This document shows, one piece after another, positions 52,172 to 61,692 of a stretch of 64,000 nucleotides of DNA. The DNA is taken from contig SVJD01000006.1 in NCBI GenBank assembly GCA_015069165.1, positions 2,276 through 66,275 on the forward strand, given 5' to 3'. Source of the DNA: Oscillospiraceae bacterium (GTDB lineage: Bacteria; Bacillota; Clostridia; UBA1212; UBA1255). How positions within the stretch are numbered: position 1 is the stretch's first letter; every line of letters begins with the position of its first letter. The notes beneath the pieces were generated by a model. The model did no database searches and was not told the DNA's origin. It was given only the letters and a program-made list of their open reading frames with translations. Both the position numbers and the translations under genes were made by a program.

Positions 52172-52855
52172 ATGAATATAGCTTTAGTTCTTGCAGCAGG
52201 AAAGGGTACGCGTATGGGCGCGGCCATTCCCAAGCAGTTTATAGAATATAAAGAAAAACCGATACTTGTGCACACACTCGAAGCATTTGCGAAACATTCA
52301 GACGTACACAAGATTTGCGTAATTTGTCCGGCTGATAATGTCGAGTACACAAAAGAACTTTTGCAAGAGTATAATATCCCCAAAATAGCGTGGGTTGAAG
52401 CCGGCGGAGCCAGCAGACGCGAATCGTCTTATATTGGGGTAGCCCGTTTGGCGAAGGAGTTCGGCGAAAATGACGTTGTAATGATACACGACGGAGCAAG
52501 ACCGAATGTTTCGGAGCGCATTATATCGGAAAACATTGAAGCTGCTGCAAAATTCGGTGCGTGTGAAACAGCAATACCAAGTCAGGATACTATTGCTGTT
52601 TCGGAAGACGGACAGAAAATTTCCGGCATACCCGACAGAAGCAAAATGTATAATGTACAGACTCCCCAATCTTTTAAAATCGGTATAATTTTAAAAGCTC
52701 ACCAATCATGGATGGAAAGAGATGGCGGAAATGCTACCGATGATGCTGCCCTTGTCATGGCAGACGGGCTCGATGTGTATTTGGTAAAGGGCGAAAAAAA
52801 CAACCTGAAAATCACAACTGAGGAGGACTTGCGAATATTATACAGCATAACGTAA
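52172..52855 (+). CDS. ispD: IspD/TarI-family cytidylyltransferase
   Basis: LAAGKGTRMG..PKQF, IHDGARP, QTPQSF, TDDA, NLKITT. Confidence 0.8.
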   Translation: MNIALVLAAGKGTRMGAAIPKQFIEYKEKPILVHTLEAFAKHSDVHKICVICPADNVEYTKELLQEYNIPKIAWVEAGGASRRESSYIGVARLAKEFGENDVVMIHDGARPNVSERIISENIEAAAKFGACETAIPSQDTIAVSEDGQKISGIPDRSKMYNVQTPQSFKIGIILKAHQSWMERDGGNATDDAALVMADGLDVYLVKGEKNNLKITTEEDLRILYSIT

Positions 52856-52873
52856 AAATTCGGAGGTGCCTTT

Positions 52874-53092
52874 GTGATGGAAAAATCGCTTTGCGTGTTT
52901 AAAACACACAATCAAGCGGTGGCGGCATGGAGTCATTTGAAACGTGCAGGAATAGATTGCACACTGGTCCGCACACCGCAAAATTTGGCAAAAGAGAAAA
53001 CGTGCTCGTACAGTGTTTCGATTTCTGCAGAATATATCGAAAAAGCAAGAGTGATTTTACAGAAAAATACACTTGATTTTTATATTGTGTAA
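52874..53092 (+). CDS. DUF3343-like small protein
   Basis: FKTHNQA..LKRAGI..VRTP..CSYSV; RBS ggagg. Confidence 0.65.
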   Translation: MMEKSLCVFKTHNQAVAAWSHLKRAGIDCTLVRTPQNLAKEKTCSYSVSISAEYIEKARVILQKNTLDFYIV

Positions 53093-53354: not shown

Positions 53355-53645
53355 ATGGCTTGTACAGAAAAATATATTTTGAATAGCGAATTACAAGAAA
53401 TGCAATTGGGAGAGGGAGAAGGAGAAGGCACCGTGTTGTATGATCCTGCTACAGAAAATACCCACGTGCTTGACGAAGTTGCACAAGACATAATCGAAAT
53501 GTTCAAAAATCCTTCTGCCATAGAAGAAGCTGTGTCAAAGCTTGCAACCATATATGACGAAAAAGAAGAAATAATAGATAAAGATGTGAGAGAGTTTATT
53601 GTTACAGCGTTAAGCAATAACATACTTTTAACTGTTGAAGAATAA
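53355..53645 (+). CDS. Stand-alone PqqD/RiPP recognition element (RRE)
   Basis: 96 aa; VLYDP..THVLDEVAQDI..LATIYD..IDKDVREFIVTALSNNIL. Confidence 0.85.
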   Translation: MACTEKYILNSELQEMQLGEGEGEGTVLYDPATENTHVLDEVAQDIIEMFKNPSAIEEAVSKLATIYDEKEEIIDKDVREFIVTALSNNILLTVEE

Positions 53646-53660
53646 AAATTCAAAGCAGAT

Positions 53661-54560
53661 ATGGACATACTTTTTTACACCAGGGAAAAGTGTAAATATG
53701 CAATGACAGTTATAACTGACGACAAAAACATTGCGGAAATATTCCAAAAGCGATATTTTTGCAATAAAATTTCGTCGGAAAATTTTGCATTGGCAAAGAC
53801 TTGTGCAGAATTTGAGGAACTTTTTACCAAAATACAGGCGGAGCTTCCAAAAAAATCATCAGTGTTTTGTTACAACAGCGGCGAGAAAAAAGCATTTTTT
53901 ATAGAATCAGAGCGGAAAACGGTACTTACCGTTGATTTTTCGTTGCCCCAAGAATTATTACCTATCCAAGTTTTAGAAAATTTGTTATATATATCGTTCA
54001 TTCCCGAAGACAGTGTACTTGCTCTGCACGGTGCGGCGGTAGCAAAAGACGGCAAAGCGTACTTACTGTTGGCCTCTACTACTAGCGGAAAGTCCACGTT
54101 GACCGCTTTTTTGTGGAAAAAAGCAGGGTATGAATATATAACCGATGACGAAATATTTATTTCGCGCAAAGACAGATGTGTGCTGCCCGTGAGAAAAAAT
54201 TTATCACTCAGACAGGGCGGATATGATTTTTTAAATATGGAATTTGAAAAAGAATACCCGATTTTTGACGGCAAAGCACATACACATTTAATAGTGCCCC
54301 AAGAAGAGTTGAAATTCCCTAAATATGAAATAGAAAAAATAGTATTTTTGGCAGGATATGGCAGTGAAGAGCCGTATTTTATCAAAACACAGCCGAGAGA
54401 GGCCTTTTCCAAACTGCTTAAAGGACAGCTTTCCGGCAAGAATTTTGGAGAAAATGTAGCAGAAAAATATAAGATTTTAACTGAATTGGCACAAAAATCT
54501 TATGAAATGAGGTATTCTGATTTATGGACGGCAGAAAAATACTTAAAACACTTACCATAA
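53661..54560 (+). CDS. HPr-kinase-like (PadeK-type) peptide kinase
   Basis: LHGAAV..LLLASTTSGKSTLT..YITDDEIFI. Confidence 0.75.
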   Translation: MDILFYTREKCKYAMTVITDDKNIAEIFQKRYFCNKISSENFALAKTCAEFEELFTKIQAELPKKSSVFCYNSGEKKAFFIESERKTVLTVDFSLPQELLPIQVLENLLYISFIPEDSVLALHGAAVAKDGKAYLLLASTTSGKSTLTAFLWKKAGYEYITDDEIFISRKDRCVLPVRKNLSLRQGGYDFLNMEFEKEYPIFDGKAHTHLIVPQEELKFPKYEIEKIVFLAGYGSEEPYFIKTQPREAFSKLLKGQLSGKNFGENVAEKYKILTELAQKSYEMRYSDLWTAEKYLKHLP

Positions 54561-56659
54561 TGAAATTAAAGCAAAACGATAATGTTTTGCAGGTGGGCGG
54601 GTATAGTATGATTCCTCTGCTGGTTGCCGGGGATTTTATCCGTATAAAAGAACAAGATAAATACGAAATAGGCGATATTGTTGTTTGCGTTGATGACAGA
54701 AGCGGCAAAGTCGGACTTCTGGTACACAGAGTTATTTATATACGCAAAAAGGACGGTAAAATTATTTATGTCATAAAAGGCGACAATGCGGTGGCGGCAG
54801 AATATATAGAGAGTGATTTTTGCTTGGGTAAAGTAACGGAAATCACAAACAGAAATGGTAAAAAACTCGAGGTGAATACACCGAGCGAGAAAGATATGCA
54901 AATAGTTGAGCTTTCAAGAAAAGTTTACCGAATTTACCAAAAAACGGGTGACCCTACAGTAGCATTCAGCAGTGCACCTCACATGGAAATTTATGATAGG
55001 GCGCCTGATTTTATGAAAGAATGCGTTTTTGCGGCGCAAAAAGAAATGATAAAAAGAGCGGCAGAGCTTGTGCAAGGTTTACCGCCTTCACCGCCTGACC
55101 CTAAATTTGAATTTACAAAAGATTATTATGCCTTGCTTGCTTTTCACAGAGTAATGAATGTGTTGGAACCTTATGTTATTGAGGGTAGCGGGCGTTTCGG
55201 AAAGCATATAAAACTCTCTAAAGCCAGAAATTTGTCACTTGCAAGAAGACGTTTGATTAAAGCAAAAGAGATTATTGAAGCTTTTGAAAGAGAAAACATC
55301 AAATATCTCGTATTTAAAGGCTTTGCAACTTCATATTTTATTTTCGGGAATCCCAATATACGAGAATGTGATGATATTGATTTCCTGATTTTGCCGGAAG
55401 ATGTACAAAGAGCTCACGAAATATTAGGAGAATTGGGCTATTGTTACCATGACGAGAGAGGTTTTTACAAACCGGAGATACCCGAAGAACATTATCGAAC
55501 ACATTTAAAACCGTATGTACACGAAAAAGATTTGAATACGGTAGAGCTTCACACTGCCATTTTTACAGAGGAAAAATATACTCCTGCGGTTTTGGAAAAC
55601 AGACAAAAAATTGACATAAATGGTATGGGTGTTTATGTTTTAAAGGATGTTGAAGCTTTTGTTTGCCAGTTATTCATTACGGCTGTTGACGATTACGGAA
55701 CGGCTAATATGACATACGAAATGGATCCGAATATTTTTTTGCAGTTAAAATTCCGTAATTACCTTGATATAGCAATTATGGCAAAAAAATGCGCGGAAAT
55801 TCCGTCAGAAGAAATAATAGAAACCGCAATGAAATACAATGTGAATTTCCAGATGTTTTTTGCTTTGGATTTTACTTGTAAAATGTTTGATTATGCGGAA
55901 TTTACAGAGCCTTTGCGTAAACTTCGCGACAGATTTACAGAAAACGAGCAATTAGAGCCGAGTATGTACGATTTGCCGATAGATGTACAAGATTGTTTAC
56001 GCAGTCCGTTTAAAATGAAAATGAACGGCAAAGCTCTTTGTTATTTAAGAGATTCATATATTTTTTCATCACATTGGCGCAGGGTGCAAAAAAGGATAGA
56101 AAGCGAAGAAATTCCGCAATTAGAACAGCAAGTTATAAATATGCCTACAGCAGAAGGTGTGATACAAAAAGTAAAAAAGACCTCAGCGGGCGTAGTTATA
56201 GAGAACGAAATAGATATTTCGCAAAGAACAGATGAATTTATATTTGTTATAAAGAGATTGTTGGAAGAAAAGTGCAGAAAGCCGGAAGATTACGGCTATG
56301 AAGTGCGTTTTTTGTATGTAAATAAAAAAGAAGGCTATATGCGAAAAGGAAAAATAATGCAAAATATGCACTTGGATATGGAAGAATTGACAGATGAAGT
56401 AATCGCTTATATTCGGAAAACACGGCAAAAGTCAAGAATTTCCCTATATATAGGCAAAAAACGGACTTTTGACAACCTTTCTGAAAATAAAAAAATCACA
56501 ACAAAATTTAATATGTCAAAAGAAATATTTTTGCCTAAAAAAAGCACAAATTTCATAGTATATTCCACTGATATTCTTGATTTGGAATATGCCAAATTAA
56601 AGAAAATAACCTCTATAAATGAAAAAGAGGAAAATATCATAAAAATTTCATTTGACTAA
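54560..56659 (+). CDS. S24/S26 peptidase-like domain fused to nucleotidyltransferase (NTP_transf_5-like)
   Basis: GYSMIPLL.GD..GDIVV..LVHRV..KGDN; FKGFA..RECDDIDFLI..VELH. Start ATG 54560 in TAATG overlap. Confidence 0.75.
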   Translation: MKLKQNDNVLQVGGYSMIPLLVAGDFIRIKEQDKYEIGDIVVCVDDRSGKVGLLVHRVIYIRKKDGKIIYVIKGDNAVAAEYIESDFCLGKVTEITNRNGKKLEVNTPSEKDMQIVELSRKVYRIYQKTGDPTVAFSSAPHMEIYDRAPDFMKECVFAAQKEMIKRAAELVQGLPPSPPDPKFEFTKDYYALLAFHRVMNVLEPYVIEGSGRFGKHIKLSKARNLSLARRRLIKAKEIIEAFERENIKYLVFKGFATSYFIFGNPNIRECDDIDFLILPEDVQRAHEILGELGYCYHDERGFYKPEIPEEHYRTHLKPYVHEKDLNTVELHTAIFTEEKYTPAVLENRQKIDINGMGVYVLKDVEAFVCQLFITAVDDYGTANMTYEMDPNIFLQLKFRNYLDIAIMAKKCAEIPSEEIIETAMKYNVNFQMFFALDFTCKMFDYAEFTEPLRKLRDRFTENEQLEPSMYDLPIDVQDCLRSPFKMKMNGKALCYLRDSYIFSSHWRRVQKRIESEEIPQLEQQVINMPTAEGVIQKVKKTSAGVVIENEIDISQRTDEFIFVIKRLLEEKCRKPEDYGYEVRFLYVNKKEGYMRKGKIMQNMHLDMEELTDEVIAYIRKTRQKSRISLYIGKKRTFDNLSENKKITTKFNMSKEIFLPKKSTNFIVYSTDILDLEYAKLKKITSINEKEENIIKISFD

Positions 56660-56680
56660 AAATCGAATATATATTACAAT
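56652..56680 (+). promoter_or_regulatory. sigma-A-like promoter for regulator-radical SAM pair
   Basis: TTGACT-N17-TACAAT. Confidence 0.6.
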
Positions 56681-56743
56681 AAATGTAATAGTTAAACTTC
56701 TGTGGAAGAAAAAACGCTTCTCGGAAAAAAAGGGGGAATTTCA

Positions 56744-57859
56744 ATGTCCGACAGTAAGTACATTTTAGAAAAAAACAAAGAGGCAGTGTTTGATTTTTTT
56801 GCGTTGCTGAACTCTGTTCAGACGGCAGCAAGTTATGATGATATTTGCCCGCACAAGGAAGTAGCACCTGATGATAAAATTTCAGATGCTTATTACCGTT
56901 TGTATATGATAAGTTCAAGACTCTCATCCGGCTTGAAAATGTTCTTCACTTATAAAGAAGAACGCAAAATGAACTTTTTTGAGTGGATGTTCCGCACGAA
57001 TGTGGATACTTATTCGAGTTGTGAGGATATTATTTCTGAGATTGAGCAGTGGGCTCCCACAAAGCTTGTTTACCAGGCAATGAGATTTAATGATCCCTAT
57101 AATAATTTCCAAGATAAATTTTATGAGGAGATTGTAAATTCAAGAGATTTGTTTATGAGTTATATGAACGGTCTTAATACAACTACAGAAGTAAGATGGG
57201 AAATTATGTCATTTATTCAGCATCCCGAGGAATCACTTGACTTGCTTAAAGAATACATCAAAAAGATGTACCGCGAATTTTCCATAGAGTACGCTAATTT
57301 TTCACAGCAAAGAGCAGCTTTAAACGAGAAATTGGCAGAAAGTATTGCGGATGACTCAATTGATGCGGCAGTTATCGATTACGAGATAGATGAAAAAGAA
57401 ATCGAATCTACAGTTGAGATTTTATCACAATCAATAACACCTCCTACAAAAGAGGTTAAAATTGTAGGCTCGCTTTTCGCACCTAATCAAATGATAAAAA
57501 TAGACGCTTCCAGAGGTCTTTATTATTTGGTTGGTGTAGGTTATATGGATTACTACAACTCATTTATGAATAAAGGTCCGGATGATGTTAAGCTCAATGA
57601 ACTCTTCAGAGCTTTTACAGACGGAACTCGTGCGCAAATTATTGAGATTTTGAGAGAAAAAGAGTGTTATAACGGCGAGCTCAGCAATATGTTGGATGTT
57701 CCCATGTCTTCGCTTACTCATCACATGGAAATTCTCAATACCTGCGGTTTCGTTGTTAAGCGTAATGTAGGTAAACGCACTTATTATAAATTAAACAAGA
57801 AGCAATTTATAAATGCTTCCAGATTGTTACGAAGATATGTAGAAGGTTATGATCTGTAA
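56744..57859 (+). CDS. Large ArsR-family regulator (C-terminal winged HTH, ~290-aa N-terminal domain)
   Basis: FRAFTDGTRAQIIEIL..YNGELSNML..SSLTHHMEILNTCGFV..GKRTYYKLN. Start ATG 56744. Confidence 0.8.
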   Translation: MSDSKYILEKNKEAVFDFFALLNSVQTAASYDDICPHKEVAPDDKISDAYYRLYMISSRLSSGLKMFFTYKEERKMNFFEWMFRTNVDTYSSCEDIISEIEQWAPTKLVYQAMRFNDPYNNFQDKFYEEIVNSRDLFMSYMNGLNTTTEVRWEIMSFIQHPEESLDLLKEYIKKMYREFSIEYANFSQQRAALNEKLAESIADDSIDAAVIDYEIDEKEIESTVEILSQSITPPTKEVKIVGSLFAPNQMIKIDASRGLYYLVGVGYMDYYNSFMNKGPDDVKLNELFRAFTDGTRAQIIEILREKECYNGELSNMLDVPMSSLTHHMEILNTCGFVVKRNVGKRTYYKLNKKQFINASRLLRRYVEGYDL

Positions 57860-58883
57860 AAGCACTTACATTGAAATTACAAACAGATGTAATTTAGATT
57901 GCAGAGATTGTTATAACAGCTCAGGTAGAAATAAACATACAGTGGAGCTTGATCTCGATGTGCTTTTAAAATATATTGAAGATTTAATTATTATATACAA
58001 AGTAAGAAGCATTACATTTTCCGGTGGCGAACCGCTTCTTTACAGCAGAATTGACGATTTGTTTGATGCTTTGACGGAATATACCCGCAAATATTCTGAT
58101 GTAGTGTTTAATTATGTAACAAACGGTACTTTGTATAACAAGAATTTTTACGATTTATTGGAAAACAGCTCTCGATTTATGGTGCAAATAAGTCTTGACG
58201 GACCGAATGAGGAGTCGTGTGCAAGTATACGCGGCTCAGGCACGTTTACAAAAGTAGTAAATAATGTAAGTCAGAGAAAGTTTTTCCATAAACCTGTATT
58301 CAAAATGATTATCAACAAATTCAATGCTCCCTTTGCAGAAGAATACTTCCACTTTGTTTATGAAAAGCTTGGCGGCGAGCCAAGCTTTGCATTTGCAAAT
58401 TATCAGGGAAATGCCATACAAAATTGGAATGAAATGGAACTTTTACCATCCGAAAAGGCTAAAATACTCAGGATGGTTCAACAGAAATACAAAGAATACG
58501 ATATTACAGATATTGCACTTCCCCTTCCCACTGTTCATTGTGACCTTACGGACGCGGACGGCGCAATGGATTTTTGCATCAAGCCGGATGGCTCGGTGCA
58601 ACCGTGTCAGAATCTTTATGACAGCAAATTTTCCCTCGGAAACATTTACAAACTTGACTGGAAAAGTATTGAATTCAACGTAAACAGCCTCAAGGAGTAT
58701 CTGATTAAACGATTGGAAATGGATTTTGGCTGTAAAAAGTGTTTTTTAAACAAAAATTGCGGCAGAGGTTGCCCTGCTTTTGCGTTTATGAGGAACGGAG
58801 ATTTGCTTTTATCTGACGCAGAGTGCGATTTTAAGCGTGTTGCAATGATTTCCATTATAAAAACAGAAAAAGGCTTTAAATAA
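57849..58883 (+). CDS. Radical SAM/SPASM peptide maturase (no fused RRE)
   Basis: CNLDCRDC, SGGEPLL, QISLDG; SPASM HC..GSVQPC..GNI..CKKC..CGRGCPA..C. Confidence 0.9.
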   Translation: MICKSTYIEITNRCNLDCRDCYNSSGRNKHTVELDLDVLLKYIEDLIIIYKVRSITFSGGEPLLYSRIDDLFDALTEYTRKYSDVVFNYVTNGTLYNKNFYDLLENSSRFMVQISLDGPNEESCASIRGSGTFTKVVNNVSQRKFFHKPVFKMIINKFNAPFAEEYFHFVYEKLGGEPSFAFANYQGNAIQNWNEMELLPSEKAKILRMVQQKYKEYDITDIALPLPTVHCDLTDADGAMDFCIKPDGSVQPCQNLYDSKFSLGNIYKLDWKSIEFNVNSLKEYLIKRLEMDFGCKKCFLNKNCGRGCPAFAFMRNGDLLLSDAECDFKRVAMISIIKTEKGFK

Positions 58884-58922
58884 AAGTGCCTATATATAGG
58901 CAAAAATAAGAGGTTTGGTGTA

Positions 58923-58964
58923 TAGTCCGAAATTGTTTGATTTTTGTCAAACATTTCCGGACTA
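58923..58964. repeat. Long imperfect inverted repeat after the radical SAM gene
   Basis: TAGTCCGAAATTGTTTGA..TCAAACATTTCCGGACTA. Confidence 0.65.
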
Positions 58965-59146
58965 AAATTTTGTTAATAAAATTAACTTTTTGTTTCTAAA
59001 ATTGAGAAGTCGAAAAAATGAAAATCATTATTTTTAGATGTTTTTAAATAAATCACATAATAAATATATAAAATATACCCTATTTTTAGCACTGAAAAAG
59101 TACGAGAAAAAAATAATTTATGTGCGAAAACTGTAAAATTGATGGC

Positions 59147-59201
59147 TTGCACGTTTGTTTTTATTGTGCTAACATATCAATGCAGCCGGGAAATATTTCC
59201 C
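59147..59201 (+). promoter_or_regulatory. Candidate promoter with downstream palindrome
   Basis: TTGCAC-N17-TAACAT; GGGAAATATTTCCC at 59188-201. Confidence 0.45.
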
Positions 59202-59244
59202 AAAGGCTTTTTGTAGATTATATGTGGAAAGAGAAGGAGCGACG

Positions 59245-60069
59245 ATGGGTTCTGCAGAGTGGAGTGTAGCGAGTAAGAAAAAGAGTGTTTTGTTTGATGT
59301 ACTTTTTGTTATGGACAGAGCGAACAGAATTAAATCTAAAGAGATACTACGATTTGAATATTCTCTTTTGAAAGCTGAAACAGTCGAGAAATATGATGCA
59401 ATTTATAAAGTGGCAAAGAATGAAAGCGATTTGATGGCTGCGGCGTTTCATGTTTCCCCAAAGAAGATATCCAGTAAACACGATATAATATGTGAGTATT
59501 TACTTGATAAAGCGGTGGATATGGTTTCTTTTAATGAAATGGTCAAATTTTTAGAGAAAACTACAGTGGAAGAGATTGCGTATTATATTGCAGCTACATG
59601 TTTATCTACAAAAGATAAAGAAGTAACAAGAGAAGATATCGCTGAAATAGTAAAGCAGGGAGACCAAAATGTGATTGAGGTTTTATACCATGCAGCGTTA
59701 CCGGAGAAAATCAAGATGAGTGTGTATATGATGGTTTTCAATTATGATAAATTTTTATCAGAGTTAATCTGTTATATGAAGAAACTTCATAAGTATGTTA
59801 ATAATTTATATACGGAGTATTTAGATGTTTATCAACATTCTAAAAATAATCTAGTTGACTTTATGAATGTAAAAGCTAATCGACCTTATTTGATCCGGGA
59901 TATAAAAGAAAAGATTAATGACGAAAGACCAAGGAAACACGTTATAGTATTATCTTTGATAAGGCTTGAATATGGATGGATAAAACAGTCTCAACATGTA
60001 GTATATTATAGCAGAGGTCTTTTGGCAACACAAAGAGTATTACATAGTAGCGATTTTTCGATGTTTTAA
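59245..60069 (+). CDS. Protein resembling the N-terminal domain of the neighbouring ArsR-like regulators, without HTH
   Basis: Helical pattern (EVLYHAALPEKIKMSVYMMVFNYDKFLSELICYMKKLH) parallels 56744 and 60263; ends before any HTH. RBS aaggag, ATG 59245. Confidence 0.55.
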   Translation: MGSAEWSVASKKKSVLFDVLFVMDRANRIKSKEILRFEYSLLKAETVEKYDAIYKVAKNESDLMAAAFHVSPKKISSKHDIICEYLLDKAVDMVSFNEMVKFLEKTTVEEIAYYIAATCLSTKDKEVTREDIAEIVKQGDQNVIEVLYHAALPEKIKMSVYMMVFNYDKFLSELICYMKKLHKYVNNLYTEYLDVYQHSKNNLVDFMNVKANRPYLIRDIKEKINDERPRKHVIVLSLIRLEYGWIKQSQHVVYYSRGLLATQRVLHSSDFSMF

Positions 60070-60087
60070 GGAGGTGAATAAAATAAA

Positions 60088-60204
60088 ATGAAAAAATGGA
60101 GAAATCCTTTGATGGAGACGATTACAAAAGATGAATTGGCAGACCTGGTTACCGCCGCAGGCTGCTCTGATTATTGGGAGGTATGTGTATCTTTCCATAA
60201 TTAA
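60088..60204 (+). CDS. Putative RiPP precursor peptide 1 (38 aa)
   Basis: Not in ORF track. MKKWRNPLMETITKDELADLVTAAGCSDYWEVCVSFHN; RBS aaggaggtg; homologous to 61501-61647. Confidence 0.8.
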   Translation: MKKWRNPLMETITKDELADLVTAAGCSDYWEVCVSFHN

Positions 60205-60262
60205 AAAGCTGGCGCAAGTATAAACAATTTATCTAAAATTTTAAGGAAAAGAGGAATTTATA

Positions 60263-61501
60263 ATGAGAACAAAAAGGACTATTATAAAGAGAACAAGAAA
60301 AACACCGGAAGAGCAAAAACACGTAAATCCCAACAGACTGTTTTTGAGCGAACCGGCACCGTGTTTGAATCCTGCGTTTAAGGATGAGAAATACATAGCA
60401 AGCAGAAAAATCGGCGATTACTACTATTCCATACATGTAAAACCGGCAAAACCCGAAGTTCGTGATGCAATGATATTTTTGAATTTTGCATATAATGACC
60501 GCGAAAGCCTTTATCAAGAGGTAAACGGCAAAGCGGAAGAAAGAGCGTATATGAGCATTGCCACCAAAAGGCTTCTTGCTTACGCTGATGAAAATATTGG
60601 AGCATTGAAACTTTTCTTTACACGTATAAGTGACAAGTTTCCTTTTACAGGTATTGTGATGATGCCGCAAATGTGGAGAGAAGAATTCCCGATTGATTTA
60701 TTGATGGAGCTGATTGATTCATACGATGACGAAATGCTTTTTACAACGCTTCTTGTGTATTTGCACGAGAGACAGATGATGAACAAGGATTTTGTTAAAA
60801 GAATCATTCCGAATCGTGCTCTTTTAGTAATGTATTTGGACGGTGCGATGTATGACAATCAAATAAAAACCGATTTGATGGAGTTATATGATATGTCGAG
60901 CCTTAGCGCAGAAAGCAAACCCTCTTTGAAAGAAATTTTGAAAAAGTTTATACTTGAATTCTACAGTAAATATGAGGAAGTCTTTGAATATGCAAGTAAA
61001 GCCATAAACAAAGAAGTTGCAAGAATTGAAAAAACAATAAGAAAAGAAGGAGAACTTTCCGGTGTTACAGATACTTTTGTCTTTCGCAGAGCAATTTTGC
61101 GAGGCGGAATAGAGAAAAATATTTGTATTGAGTTGTTACCTTTTTGCAGATCGAATGTTGAATATTTTGCCGGTTATCATACAGTGACCATCTGTGTGGG
61201 AAATGGAAACAGTATATTGCCGGGCTCCATAGCAGATTCAGGCAGGATTGGTGAAAAGCTAAAATTACTCACAAATGACCAGCTTTATAAAATAATGAAA
61301 AGTATTTTTGCCAAACCTACAAATTTGAATACTATTGCTGCTGAACTTGAAGTTACACCGGAGCGTGCATACAAAATTTTGGCACAGTTGGTTGAGGAAA
61401 AGTATGTTTTAAAAGAAGAGAACAATCAAATATACACTGCAAATAAGGAATATTTTACTAAGATTATTCATGTTTTAGAAAATTACGGAGGTGAGATATA
61501 A
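60263..61501 (+). CDS. Large regulator-like protein with C-terminal winged HTH
   Basis: LKLLTNDQLYKIMKSI..TNLNTIAAELEVTPERAYKILAQLVEEKYV..IYTAN; core similar to 56744. Confidence 0.7.
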   Translation: MRTKRTIIKRTRKTPEEQKHVNPNRLFLSEPAPCLNPAFKDEKYIASRKIGDYYYSIHVKPAKPEVRDAMIFLNFAYNDRESLYQEVNGKAEERAYMSIATKRLLAYADENIGALKLFFTRISDKFPFTGIVMMPQMWREEFPIDLLMELIDSYDDEMLFTTLLVYLHERQMMNKDFVKRIIPNRALLVMYLDGAMYDNQIKTDLMELYDMSSLSAESKPSLKEILKKFILEFYSKYEEVFEYASKAINKEVARIEKTIRKEGELSGVTDTFVFRRAILRGGIEKNICIELLPFCRSNVEYFAGYHTVTICVGNGNSILPGSIADSGRIGEKLKLLTNDQLYKIMKSIFAKPTNLNTIAAELEVTPERAYKILAQLVEEKYVLKEENNQIYTANKEYFTKIIHVLENYGGEI

Positions 61502-61647
61502 TGAATATTTATACAGGAAAGACAAAAAAGTGGCACGCACCTTTTATGCAAACAATGTCGCGAAATGAGGTGGACAGAGCCATTGCTTTGAGTGCGTGTT
61601 CCGGATATTATGATATTTGCGGATCAAAAAGAGCAAAAATAATTTAA
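61501..61647 (+). CDS. Putative RiPP precursor peptide 2 (48 aa)
   Basis: Not in ORF track. MNIYTGKTKKWHAPFMQTMSRNEVDRAIALSACSGYYDICGSKRAKII; RBS ggaggtg; TAATG overlap with upstream gene. Confidence 0.8.
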   Translation: MNIYTGKTKKWHAPFMQTMSRNEVDRAIALSACSGYYDICGSKRAKII

Positions 61648-61659
61648 TAAGATATTAAC

Positions 61660-61692
61660 ACAATAGCCCCGTTCAGAAAACGGGGCTGTTGT
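61660..61692. terminator. Terminator hairpin between convergent genes
   Basis: ACAATAGCCCCGTT-CAGAA-AACGGGGCTGTTGT. Confidence 0.75.

Follow-up and report, generated by a model that had tools for sequence, protein, structure and literature searches.

What do the two short open reading frames (ORFs) within positions 60088-61647 of this DNA encode, and do the genes in front of them belong to the same system? The frames lie in a 64,000-nucleotide stretch, hereafter the window, of contig SVJD01000006.1 from an Oscillospiraceae bacterium (assembly GCA_015069165.1), and their products are called peptides A and B below. Comparative analysis indicates that A and B are, with high probability, the two precursor peptides of a pathway for peptides that are ribosomally synthesized and then post-translationally modified (RiPPs) at 53355-61647, and that the system is a new variant, bearing a radical S-adenosylmethionine (rSAM) enzyme, of the kind that makes linear polyphosphorylated peptides (LPPs), with a previously unmodelled precursor family. 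What the sequences show directly is which parts the cluster has, how these are conserved and linked, and that the register of the peptides is fixed. The two genes are as follows.

60088-60204, + strand: probable precursor peptide A, 38 aa; leader MKKWRNPLMETITKDELADLVTAAG, core CSDYWEVCVSFHN

61501-61647, + strand: probable precursor peptide B, 48 aa; leader MNIYTGKTKKWHAPFMQTMSRNEVDRAIALSA, core CSGYYDICGSKRAKII

An earlier note, made from this DNA alone, had proposed that the two frames are homologous, and BLASTP reproduces the 12 of 34 identical positions that it counted, in an ungapped alignment with 23/34 positive positions (37 bits, E 4e-11 for this single comparison). With the window's 1205 stop-to-stop frames of 25-90 aa as the control set, A and B are each other's best non-self match, with Smith-Waterman scores of 83 and 87 against runners-up of 34 and 38, and none of 20000 shuffled versions of B scored at least 83 against A (top shuffle 51). 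The ribosome-binding sites noted earlier are also present, as GGAGGTG before both start codons: at 60070-60076 for A, with 13 nt between GGAGG and the ATG, and at 61487-61493 for B, with a gap of 9 nt. The ATG of B shares one base, in the sequence TAATG, with the TAA of the preceding 412-aa gene (U412), and the 48-aa sequence of B is present letter for letter in the protein collection (P0001). Neither peptide has a matching model in Pfam or NCBIfam.

The pair is conserved beyond this genome. A profile of A and B finds matches in six of the nine other genomes of the genus (G002, G004, G006, G007, G008 and G009), always as one A-type and one B-type copy 1.3-1.6 kb apart; G009 holds a third copy, and the sister-genus genome G024 a more divergent pair. 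In each of the six, the A orthologue comes after the orthologue of a 281-aa gene (U281) and the B orthologue after that of U412, and a GGAGG-type site precedes the ATG in 15/15 homologues inspected. Over the 26 codons that run from two residues before the leader Trp through the Cys-Ser of the junction, the ratio of non-synonymous to synonymous differences (pN/pS) is 0.08-0.45 in 21/21 pairs of A-type orthologues and 0.08-0.40 in 21/21 B-type pairs, with synonymous differences near saturation (pS up to ~1). The low ratios therefore place the amino-acid sequence of the leader under purifying selection.

Wider searches show a sizeable family. Members are present in 11/46 genomes of the taxonomic order and in 12/400 genomes sampled from the class. 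A word-indexed protein search returned 23 family proteins, all named 'hypothetical protein' only, and an exhaustive profile search of 1.84 billion representative proteins returned 130 at E <= 0.001, of which 124 are at most 90 aa long; these 124 short representatives are clustered at 50% identity. Two proteins, P0095 and P0110, share their leaders letter for letter with the G007 peptides and continue in unrelated sequence from the junction on; they look like frameshifted gene calls or sequencing errors, not variants.

The anatomy of the family was tabulated on an alignment of 30 sequences (A3), with 121 representative cores from the database as a second set. The consensus is KWxKPxhxThxxxELxxxIxxxA-CS, and the WxxP that had been picked out in the two leaders proves to be a signature of the whole family, with Trp in 30/30 and Pro in 28/30; among the 124 short representatives the motif opens with W in 114 and with Y in 9. 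The distance from this Trp to the Cys of the junction is exactly 22 residues in 30/30. Immediately before the Cys, at position -1, stands Ala (23) or Gly (7), and position -3 is occupied by A (13), L (10), I (2), T (2), S (2) or V (1), so that a pattern of the signal-peptidase type, with a small residue at -1 and a small or aliphatic one at -3, recurs in 30/30. On the other side of the junction, position +2 is Ser in 28 and Thr in 2, and position +4 is aromatic or His in 29/30 (Y 21, F 5, H 2, W 1). Two Cys are found in 26/30 cores, the second 3 to 10 residues after the first, and one peptide has no second Cys. Past Cys-Ser the cores, 12-20 residues long, are otherwise hypervariable. This combination of a conserved leader and a variable, Cys-bearing core bears out the earlier reading of the peptides as precursors of the RiPP type.

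The 121 representative cores narrow down what is kept. Of these, 117 have Ser or Thr at +2, 110 have Cys at +1 and 117 contain a downstream Cys; the residues almost never lost are the Ser at +2 and one downstream Cys. Eleven cores were scored as having no Cys at +1, and 10 of them retain Ser at +1 or +2, 8 of those 10 together with one downstream Cys. Within the genus the A-type core has an aromatic tail and the B-type core a basic one. Arg is the C-terminal residue in 54/121 cores, which hints at a recognition or trimming signal at the C-terminus. The core motif first drawn from the window pair, C-S-x-Y-[WY]-[DE]-[VI]-C-x-S, holds for that pair but not for the family, where it occurs in 2/30 homologues and 0/121 representatives; likewise, the Cx6C spacing is present in 15/30 and is not general. 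Core sub-types can be discerned among P0076, P0083, P0094, P0109, P0130, P0132, P0133 and many cores with F-[AF]-R at the end: one sub-type carries an extended tail of the form (L/I)DS(I/T)PG…P…(I/V)(M/L), and another ends in C-x-x-x-F-x-R. The L-S-A-C at the junction resembles a lipobox, but the leader has no hydrophobic h-region, and a lipoprotein signal was rejected.

Which proteins could act on such precursors? Four genes upstream of the peptides encode a plausible set.

53355-53645, + strand: PqqD-type discrete RiPP recognition element (RRE), 96 aa; Pfam PqqD, E 5.8e-10, 39.8 bits, cutoff 23.4

53661-54560, + strand: HprK-related kinase, 299 aa, P-loop STTSGKST; NCBIfam HprK_rel_A, E 1.8e-12

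54524-56659, + strand: fusion of an S26 signal-peptidase-like domain with NTP_transf_5, 711 aa; Pfam NTP_transf_5, E 3e-27, and Peptidase_S24, E 3.1e-4

57849-58883, + strand: radical SAM/SPASM enzyme, 344 aa, no fused RRE; Pfam Radical_SAM, E 1.3e-19, and SPASM, 21.4 bits, cutoff 21.5

In the rSAM/SPASM enzyme, the CxxxCxxC at residues 14-21 is invariant in 11 orthologues, as are seven Cys of the SPASM domain (C231, C253, C295, C298, C304, C308 and C326; alignment A4), and the closest solved relative is anSME 4k37 (E 1.7e-11). The N-terminal S26 domain of the fusion is of the archaeal/SipW type, lacks the hydrophobic anchor and has a non-hydrophobic N-terminus; its motifs G-x-S-M-x-P, H-R and K-G-D are kept in 12/12 aligned homologues, with S28, H68 and D87 as the corresponding residues in the window. 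The PqqD gene is syntenic in G002, G004, G007, G009 and G003, and the gene of the HprK-related kinase, a protein with no match in Pfam, is likewise kept in synteny among relatives.

Peptide and enzyme genes also travel together. The order PqqD, kinase, S26/NTP transferase, H385 (a 385-aa gene described below), rSAM, U281, peptide A, U412, peptide B is kept in G004, G007 and G009 and, over two contigs, in G002; in G003 the contig breaks off within the rSAM gene, and the cluster is the same up to there. In four genomes of the genus the cluster stands at an equal chromosomal site (52172-53092 in the window; loci L035, L043 and L184), flanked before by an ispD-like gene and a conserved 72-aa ORF and after by a convergent metH-like gene. 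More distant clusters are compact. In G049 and on contig C143 of G090 the order is transcription factor (TF), peptide, PqqD, rSAM, kinase, S26; contig C234 of G090 (L081), cut at its end, reads TF, peptide, PqqD, rSAM; and on contig C13 of G009 it is TF, peptide, kinase, S26, rSAM, NTP transferase, followed by two ABC exporters. The earlier expectation that homologues would be found near rSAM and PqqD genes is thus borne out, with the peptide genes either adjoining them or in the same genome. Across the 46 genomes of the order, an orthologue of the rSAM enzyme is present in 11/11 that bear a peptide as opposed to 2/35 without a peptide match, a count among kin that are not independent, the peptide-bearing genomes representing four genera (g1, g5, g6 and g13). 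The two exceptions are G003, whose cluster is cut at the contig end, and G032, which has a divergent rSAM gene and a YxxP peptide at the locus.

That G032 peptide (L183:8425-8637, contig C3) is a 70-codon frame whose leader motif is Y-S-K-P and which has A-N-S-S where the family has A-C-S; it is situated between an HprK-like gene and the divergent rSAM gene (E 2.3e-34); from its sequence it looks like an intermediate between the YxxP leaders of the LPP type and the WxxP family. When genome contigs were searched with back-translated patterns from the rSAM alignment, which amounted to generic rSAM motifs, L103 was, among the matches inspected, the only close relative (36% identity, E 7e-68) with a family peptide, and inspection of the rSAM loci L104 and L105 revealed no convincing peptide. 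The L103 peptide (L103:10074-10208, JAZSPB010000104.1, a metagenome-assembled genome (MAG) of Eubacteriales) has Trp in place of the first Cys (…AAA-W-S-G-E-D-I-C…), and its locus carries an ArsR-type fragment before the peptide, and further S26, PqqD and rSAM genes, a pair of ABC exporters and the first part of another rSAM gene.

What kind of pathway is this? LPPs, a family defined only in 2026, are exemplified by the cluster lppA-K-B-S-D-N of Paenibacillus alginolyticus (Popov et al., Nat Commun 2026, PMC13381572). As presented in the main text of that report, LPP clusters encode a SipW-like signal peptidase (LppS), a discrete RRE (LppB), an HprK-like kinase (LppK), a nucleoside triphosphate (NTP) transferase (LppN) and an MsbA-like pump, together with one to three precursors of 35-200 aa that share the leader YxxPxVLxHQxIxFETxxS and vary at their C-termini (PMC13381572). 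LppK adds several phosphates to Ser3 of the core, and the leader is removed by LppS, with catalytic S29, H68 and D93, only when LppB is present (PMC13381572). The motif [Y/W]xxP is bound by the discrete RREs of Bacillota lasso and LPP systems, where Tyr or Trp sets which RRE binds and WxxP is typical of paeninodin-like lasso leaders (PMC13381572).

Measured against that description, the window cluster has four of the five LPP core functions together with the logic of the precursor. A signal peptidase I homologue lies two genes from a discrete PqqD gene; an HprK-like kinase is accompanied by an NTP transferase of the PF14907 type (NTP_transf_5); the S26 domain keeps the Ser, His and Asp of LppS, at S28 and H68 as compared with S29 and H68; and the peptides combine a [Y/W]xxP leader, variable C-termini and a conserved Ser two or three residues past the cleavage site. 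The differences are equally clear. The window adds an rSAM/SPASM enzyme, and the terms radical, SPASM, Clostridi and ArsR are absent from the main text of the LPP report; the cores of the window family carry conserved Cys; its leader has WxxP but does not match the rest of the LPP motif YxxPxVLxHQxIxFETxxS; and its Trp stands 22 residues before the junction, where LppA has a Tyr at -16. Moreover, the S26 and NTP transferase domains are fused, the MsbA-like exporter of the LPP core cluster has no counterpart on the window contig, each precursor is tied to an ArsR-type paralogue, and the host organisms are not Bacilli but relatives of Eubacteriales MAGs. As to the product, Ser at +2 in 28/30 fits polyphosphorylation of the core as in the LPPs, and the presence of the rSAM/SPASM enzyme argues against a peptide that is otherwise linear, as the LPPs are. 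The S26 leader protease, the LPP kinship and the ArsR-type paralogue of each peptide gene all lie outside what the earlier note had described.

Other known systems share less with the window. Paeninodin and pseudomycoidin are phosphorylated lasso peptides, and no lasso cyclase or B2 cysteine protease was detected among the cluster proteins with Pfam and NCBIfam. In lasso peptides of this type the phosphorylation site is C-terminal, whereas the conserved Ser of the window family stands at the N-terminal end of the core. Sactipeptide and ranthipeptide systems (PapB, CteB, SkfB, StsB) resemble the window in having an rSAM/SPASM enzyme with the full set of auxiliary-cluster Cys, an RRE-dependent leader and short Cys-containing cores; they differ in that their family models are not reached (PapB 86.3 bits against a cutoff of 340, StsB 72.4 against 625), that the RRE of the window is a separate protein, that no donor-acceptor spacing is conserved and that the pathway includes a kinase and an S26 peptidase. 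The SynChlorMet (SCM) cassette and the 'HPr-rel-A system', gene-neighbourhood families of NCBIfam/TIGRFAMs, are the only curated families that join an HprK-like kinase with an rSAM/SPASM enzyme (ScmC-ScmE) or with PqqD (HprK_rel_A-PqqD_rel_X). Their models are the best or near-best NCBIfam matches of the window rSAM, kinase and PqqD proteins, but all stay below cutoff (ScmE 94.6/400, ScmC 21.9/125, HprK_rel_A 47/200, PqqD_rel_X 23.8/35), as do the lasso PqqD models. No description of an HprK-like kinase, an S26/SipW peptidase and an rSAM enzyme in one RiPP pathway was found in the literature searched, although the supplements of PMC13381572 may list rSAM-linked signal peptidases. The locus couples the module of RRE with [W/Y]xxP, HprK-like kinase and signal-peptidase-like protease to an rSAM/SPASM enzyme and Cys-bearing cores.

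Taken together, and by analogy with the LPPs, the pathway may proceed as follows. The discrete PqqD protein would bind the leader through W-x-x-P, and this binding would hold the core in register, the Trp being fixed at 22 residues from the Ala/Gly-Cys-Ser junction. The HprK-like kinase would phosphorylate the conserved Ser adjacent to the junction, as LppK does Ser3, and a further step, decoration of the phosphate, may fall to the fused NTP_transf_5 domain. The rSAM/SPASM enzyme is predicted to crosslink the core intramolecularly via conserved Cys, with a thioether as the most likely type to judge only from the class of the enzyme; as a first guess, the crosslink involves both the Ser at +2 and the downstream Cys, or else the region between them. 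The anchor-less S26 domain would then remove the leader, with help from the RRE, at the Ala/Gly-Cys bond or one residue earlier, and the earlier cut would give a core that starts with A-C-S, where Ser takes the +3 position that it has in A-Q-S of the LPP core. One enzyme set would thereby make two short products of ~12-17 residues, A with an aromatic and B with a basic tail, and the ArsR-type paralogues most likely regulate transcription of the modules and may also sense the peptides. The compact eight-gene cluster might be expressed in a heterologous host, and KWxxP, the 22-residue ruler and A|CSx[YF]...C provide a signature for mining genomes.

Several observations weigh against this assignment. 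The PqqD protein has no significant match to any RRE among solved structures (best E 0.13), and the kinase reaches neither HprK_rel_A nor ScmC, by the margins given above. The S26 domain narrowly misses the sigpep_I_arch cutoff (E 9.2e-13, 48.4 bits, cutoff 51.85). The rSAM enzyme scores nearly equally against its top families and far below their cutoffs (ScmE and PapB as above, the latter model being NF047865 with E 2.3e-24; DynA 81.4/450; anSME 78.5), so its reaction is unreadable from sequence; StsB, as above, and YhhB (54.8/445, E 7e-15) score lower still. With the exporter of the G009 C13 cluster as query, no ABC exporter was found on the window contig (C59), and 29 matches fell on other contigs. 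Linkage is not universal either: in four genomes, G024, G025 (with four modules), G035 and G036, the peptide modules stand apart from the enzymes, and in the last two the rSAM-adjacent set has no kinase and the peptides have Thr for the junction Ser. Each of these four genomes carries an orthologous rSAM gene (E ~1e-72 to 1e-76) with PqqD and S26 genes adjoining. G036 and G035 also contain, ~6 kb from their PqqD-S26-rSAM genes, an rSAM-less set of HprK-like and S26-like genes (L099:4052-5545 on contig C10 and L100:15680-17176 on contig C2), joined in L100 by a 97-aa ORF that is PqqD-like by eye; these sets may be LPP-type clusters proper.

The trait of the locus that we least expected is the tie between each peptide gene and a paralogue of the ArsR type. 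Three such proteins are encoded in the cluster.

56702-57859, + strand: H385, ArsR-type paralogue, 385 aa; HTH_metalloreg NF033788, 59.4 bits, cutoff 55; Pfam HTH_5, E 8.1e-9

59224-60069, + strand: U281, paralogue without a helix-turn-helix (HTH), 281 aa, directly 5' of peptide A; no Pfam or NCBIfam family

60263-61501, + strand: U412, paralogue with a degenerate C-terminal winged HTH, 412 aa, directly 5' of peptide B

Compared with a profile of the H385 family, U412 aligns over 338 columns including the HTH (hhalign probability 99.3, E 2.8e-20), a five-sequence profile of U281 aligns with only the N-terminal two thirds of the family (probability 97.1, E 6.4e-11), and the proteins 5' of the orphan G025 peptides reach a probability of 98.9; by these profile comparisons H385, U412, U281 and the G025 proteins form one family, and it is at this profile level only that U412 matches the ArsR type. 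An AlphaFold2 model of H385 (mean pLDDT 82.9) consists of a mostly helical N-terminal domain of ~290 aa and a C-terminal winged HTH. The Foldseek matches listed from the PDB are all small ArsR-type or similar winged-helix regulators covering no more than 106 columns (TM score 0.7-0.84 by target), and none of those listed is a structural relative of the N-terminal domain; one Atlas row passed the bar for a family name (DUF5937, TM 0.45). The nearest clusters of U412 in the language-model Atlas are Bacillota ArsR/SmtB proteins of ~350-400 aa.

Could the main role of the peptides then be to act as signals or regulatory ligands for the ArsR-type proteins next to them, in a cassette where the peptide, matured or not, governs DNA binding by its partner and the enzymes only mature the signal? 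At every inspected locus where the DNA 5' of a peptide gene is present, a member of the ArsR-type family directly precedes it, and such modules of TF and peptide occur apart from the enzymes in the four genomes named above. The HTH of H385 exceeds the NCBIfam ArsR/SmtB cutoff, and the partners evolve faster than the enzymes, with identities between G000 and G004 of 42% for U281 and 55% for U412 compared with 62% for rSAM and 77% for H385. That no exporter was matched on the window contig also speaks for it. On the other hand, U281 has no HTH, and H385 precedes the rSAM gene, not a peptide gene. RiPP clusters also commonly have regulators beside their precursor genes, and these do not necessarily bind the peptide; moreover, the RRNPP-type peptide sensors of Firmicutes have another architecture, an N-terminal HTH with TPR repeats. 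We consider this explanation, which overlaps with the RiPP pathway favoured here, rather unlikely as the full account; either way, the locus offers a testable tie of RiPP precursors to dedicated ArsR-type regulators. A bolder extension of the pathway would make it an unrecognised RiPP class of anaerobic Clostridia, in which a soluble homologue of signal peptidases sets free, inside the cytoplasm, a peptide of 12-20 residues that is both phosphorylated and crosslinked by the rSAM enzyme, every precursor has its own ArsR-type receptor and the paired A and B serve signalling or self-sensing rather than simply antimicrobial functions; this we regard as speculative and unlikely.

The chemistry put forward in the earlier note fares worse. 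It had compared the Cx4[DE] spacing with the Cx3D of PapA/freyrasin ranthipeptides, read Y-x-[DE] as a possible three-residue cyclophane triad and named two Ser as kinase targets; the peptides would then be ranthipeptides with Cys-Asp/Glu links at a fixed Cx4 spacing, or triceptides, three-residue cyclophanes of the YhhB/XyeB type, with both Ser phosphorylated. Both window peptides do contain Cx4[DE] and Y-x-[DE], the aromatic residue at +4 is conserved as described, and the rSAM enzyme matches the PapB and YhhB cyclophane models at the E values given above. Yet Cx4[DE] occurs in only 7/30 homologues and 18/121 representatives, the residue two positions past the aromatic +4 is variable across the 30 sequences, and aromatic-x-[DE] is seen in only 7/30. 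Comparison of the family therefore supports neither the ranthipeptide analogy nor the Y-x-[DE] triad. The full motif is as rare as stated above, and the bit scores against PapB and YhhB are a fraction of the respective cutoffs. As for the two Ser, the first is conserved and a plausible target of the kinase, but the second is not conserved. We therefore judge this chemistry to be very doubtful.

Least probable is that A and B are small proteins without modification that lie near the rSAM cluster by chance, for example disulfide-bonded peptides, or proteins that assist or antagonise their ArsR-type neighbours: modules far from the enzymes in four genomes and two Cys that could simply form a disulfide would fit, but the tie to the rSAM orthologue (11/11 as opposed to 2/35), the peptides inside the compact enzyme clusters of G049, G090 and G009 contig C13, and the 22-residue ruler with its -3/-1 pattern in 30/30 speak against it, and the 8 cores that have no Cys at +1 and hold a single downstream Cys can form no disulfide.

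Two further features near the peptide genes complete the picture. A 49-aa Cys-rich ORF at 59120-59269 (+ strand), in the spacer between rSAM and U281, was weighed as a possible third precursor but dismissed, being unconserved in nine related loci (best tblastn E 0.51); it overlaps the annotated GTG start of U281, and orthologues suggest that the true start of U281 lies a few codons 3' of 59224. The other feature stands past the stop codon of peptide B.

61665-61687: G+C-rich hairpin, 18 nt past the peptide B stop, 10 pairs of which 6 are G-C; the scan assigns the site to the - strand

This hairpin, between the cluster and the convergent metH-like gene, likely marks the end of the transcription unit.

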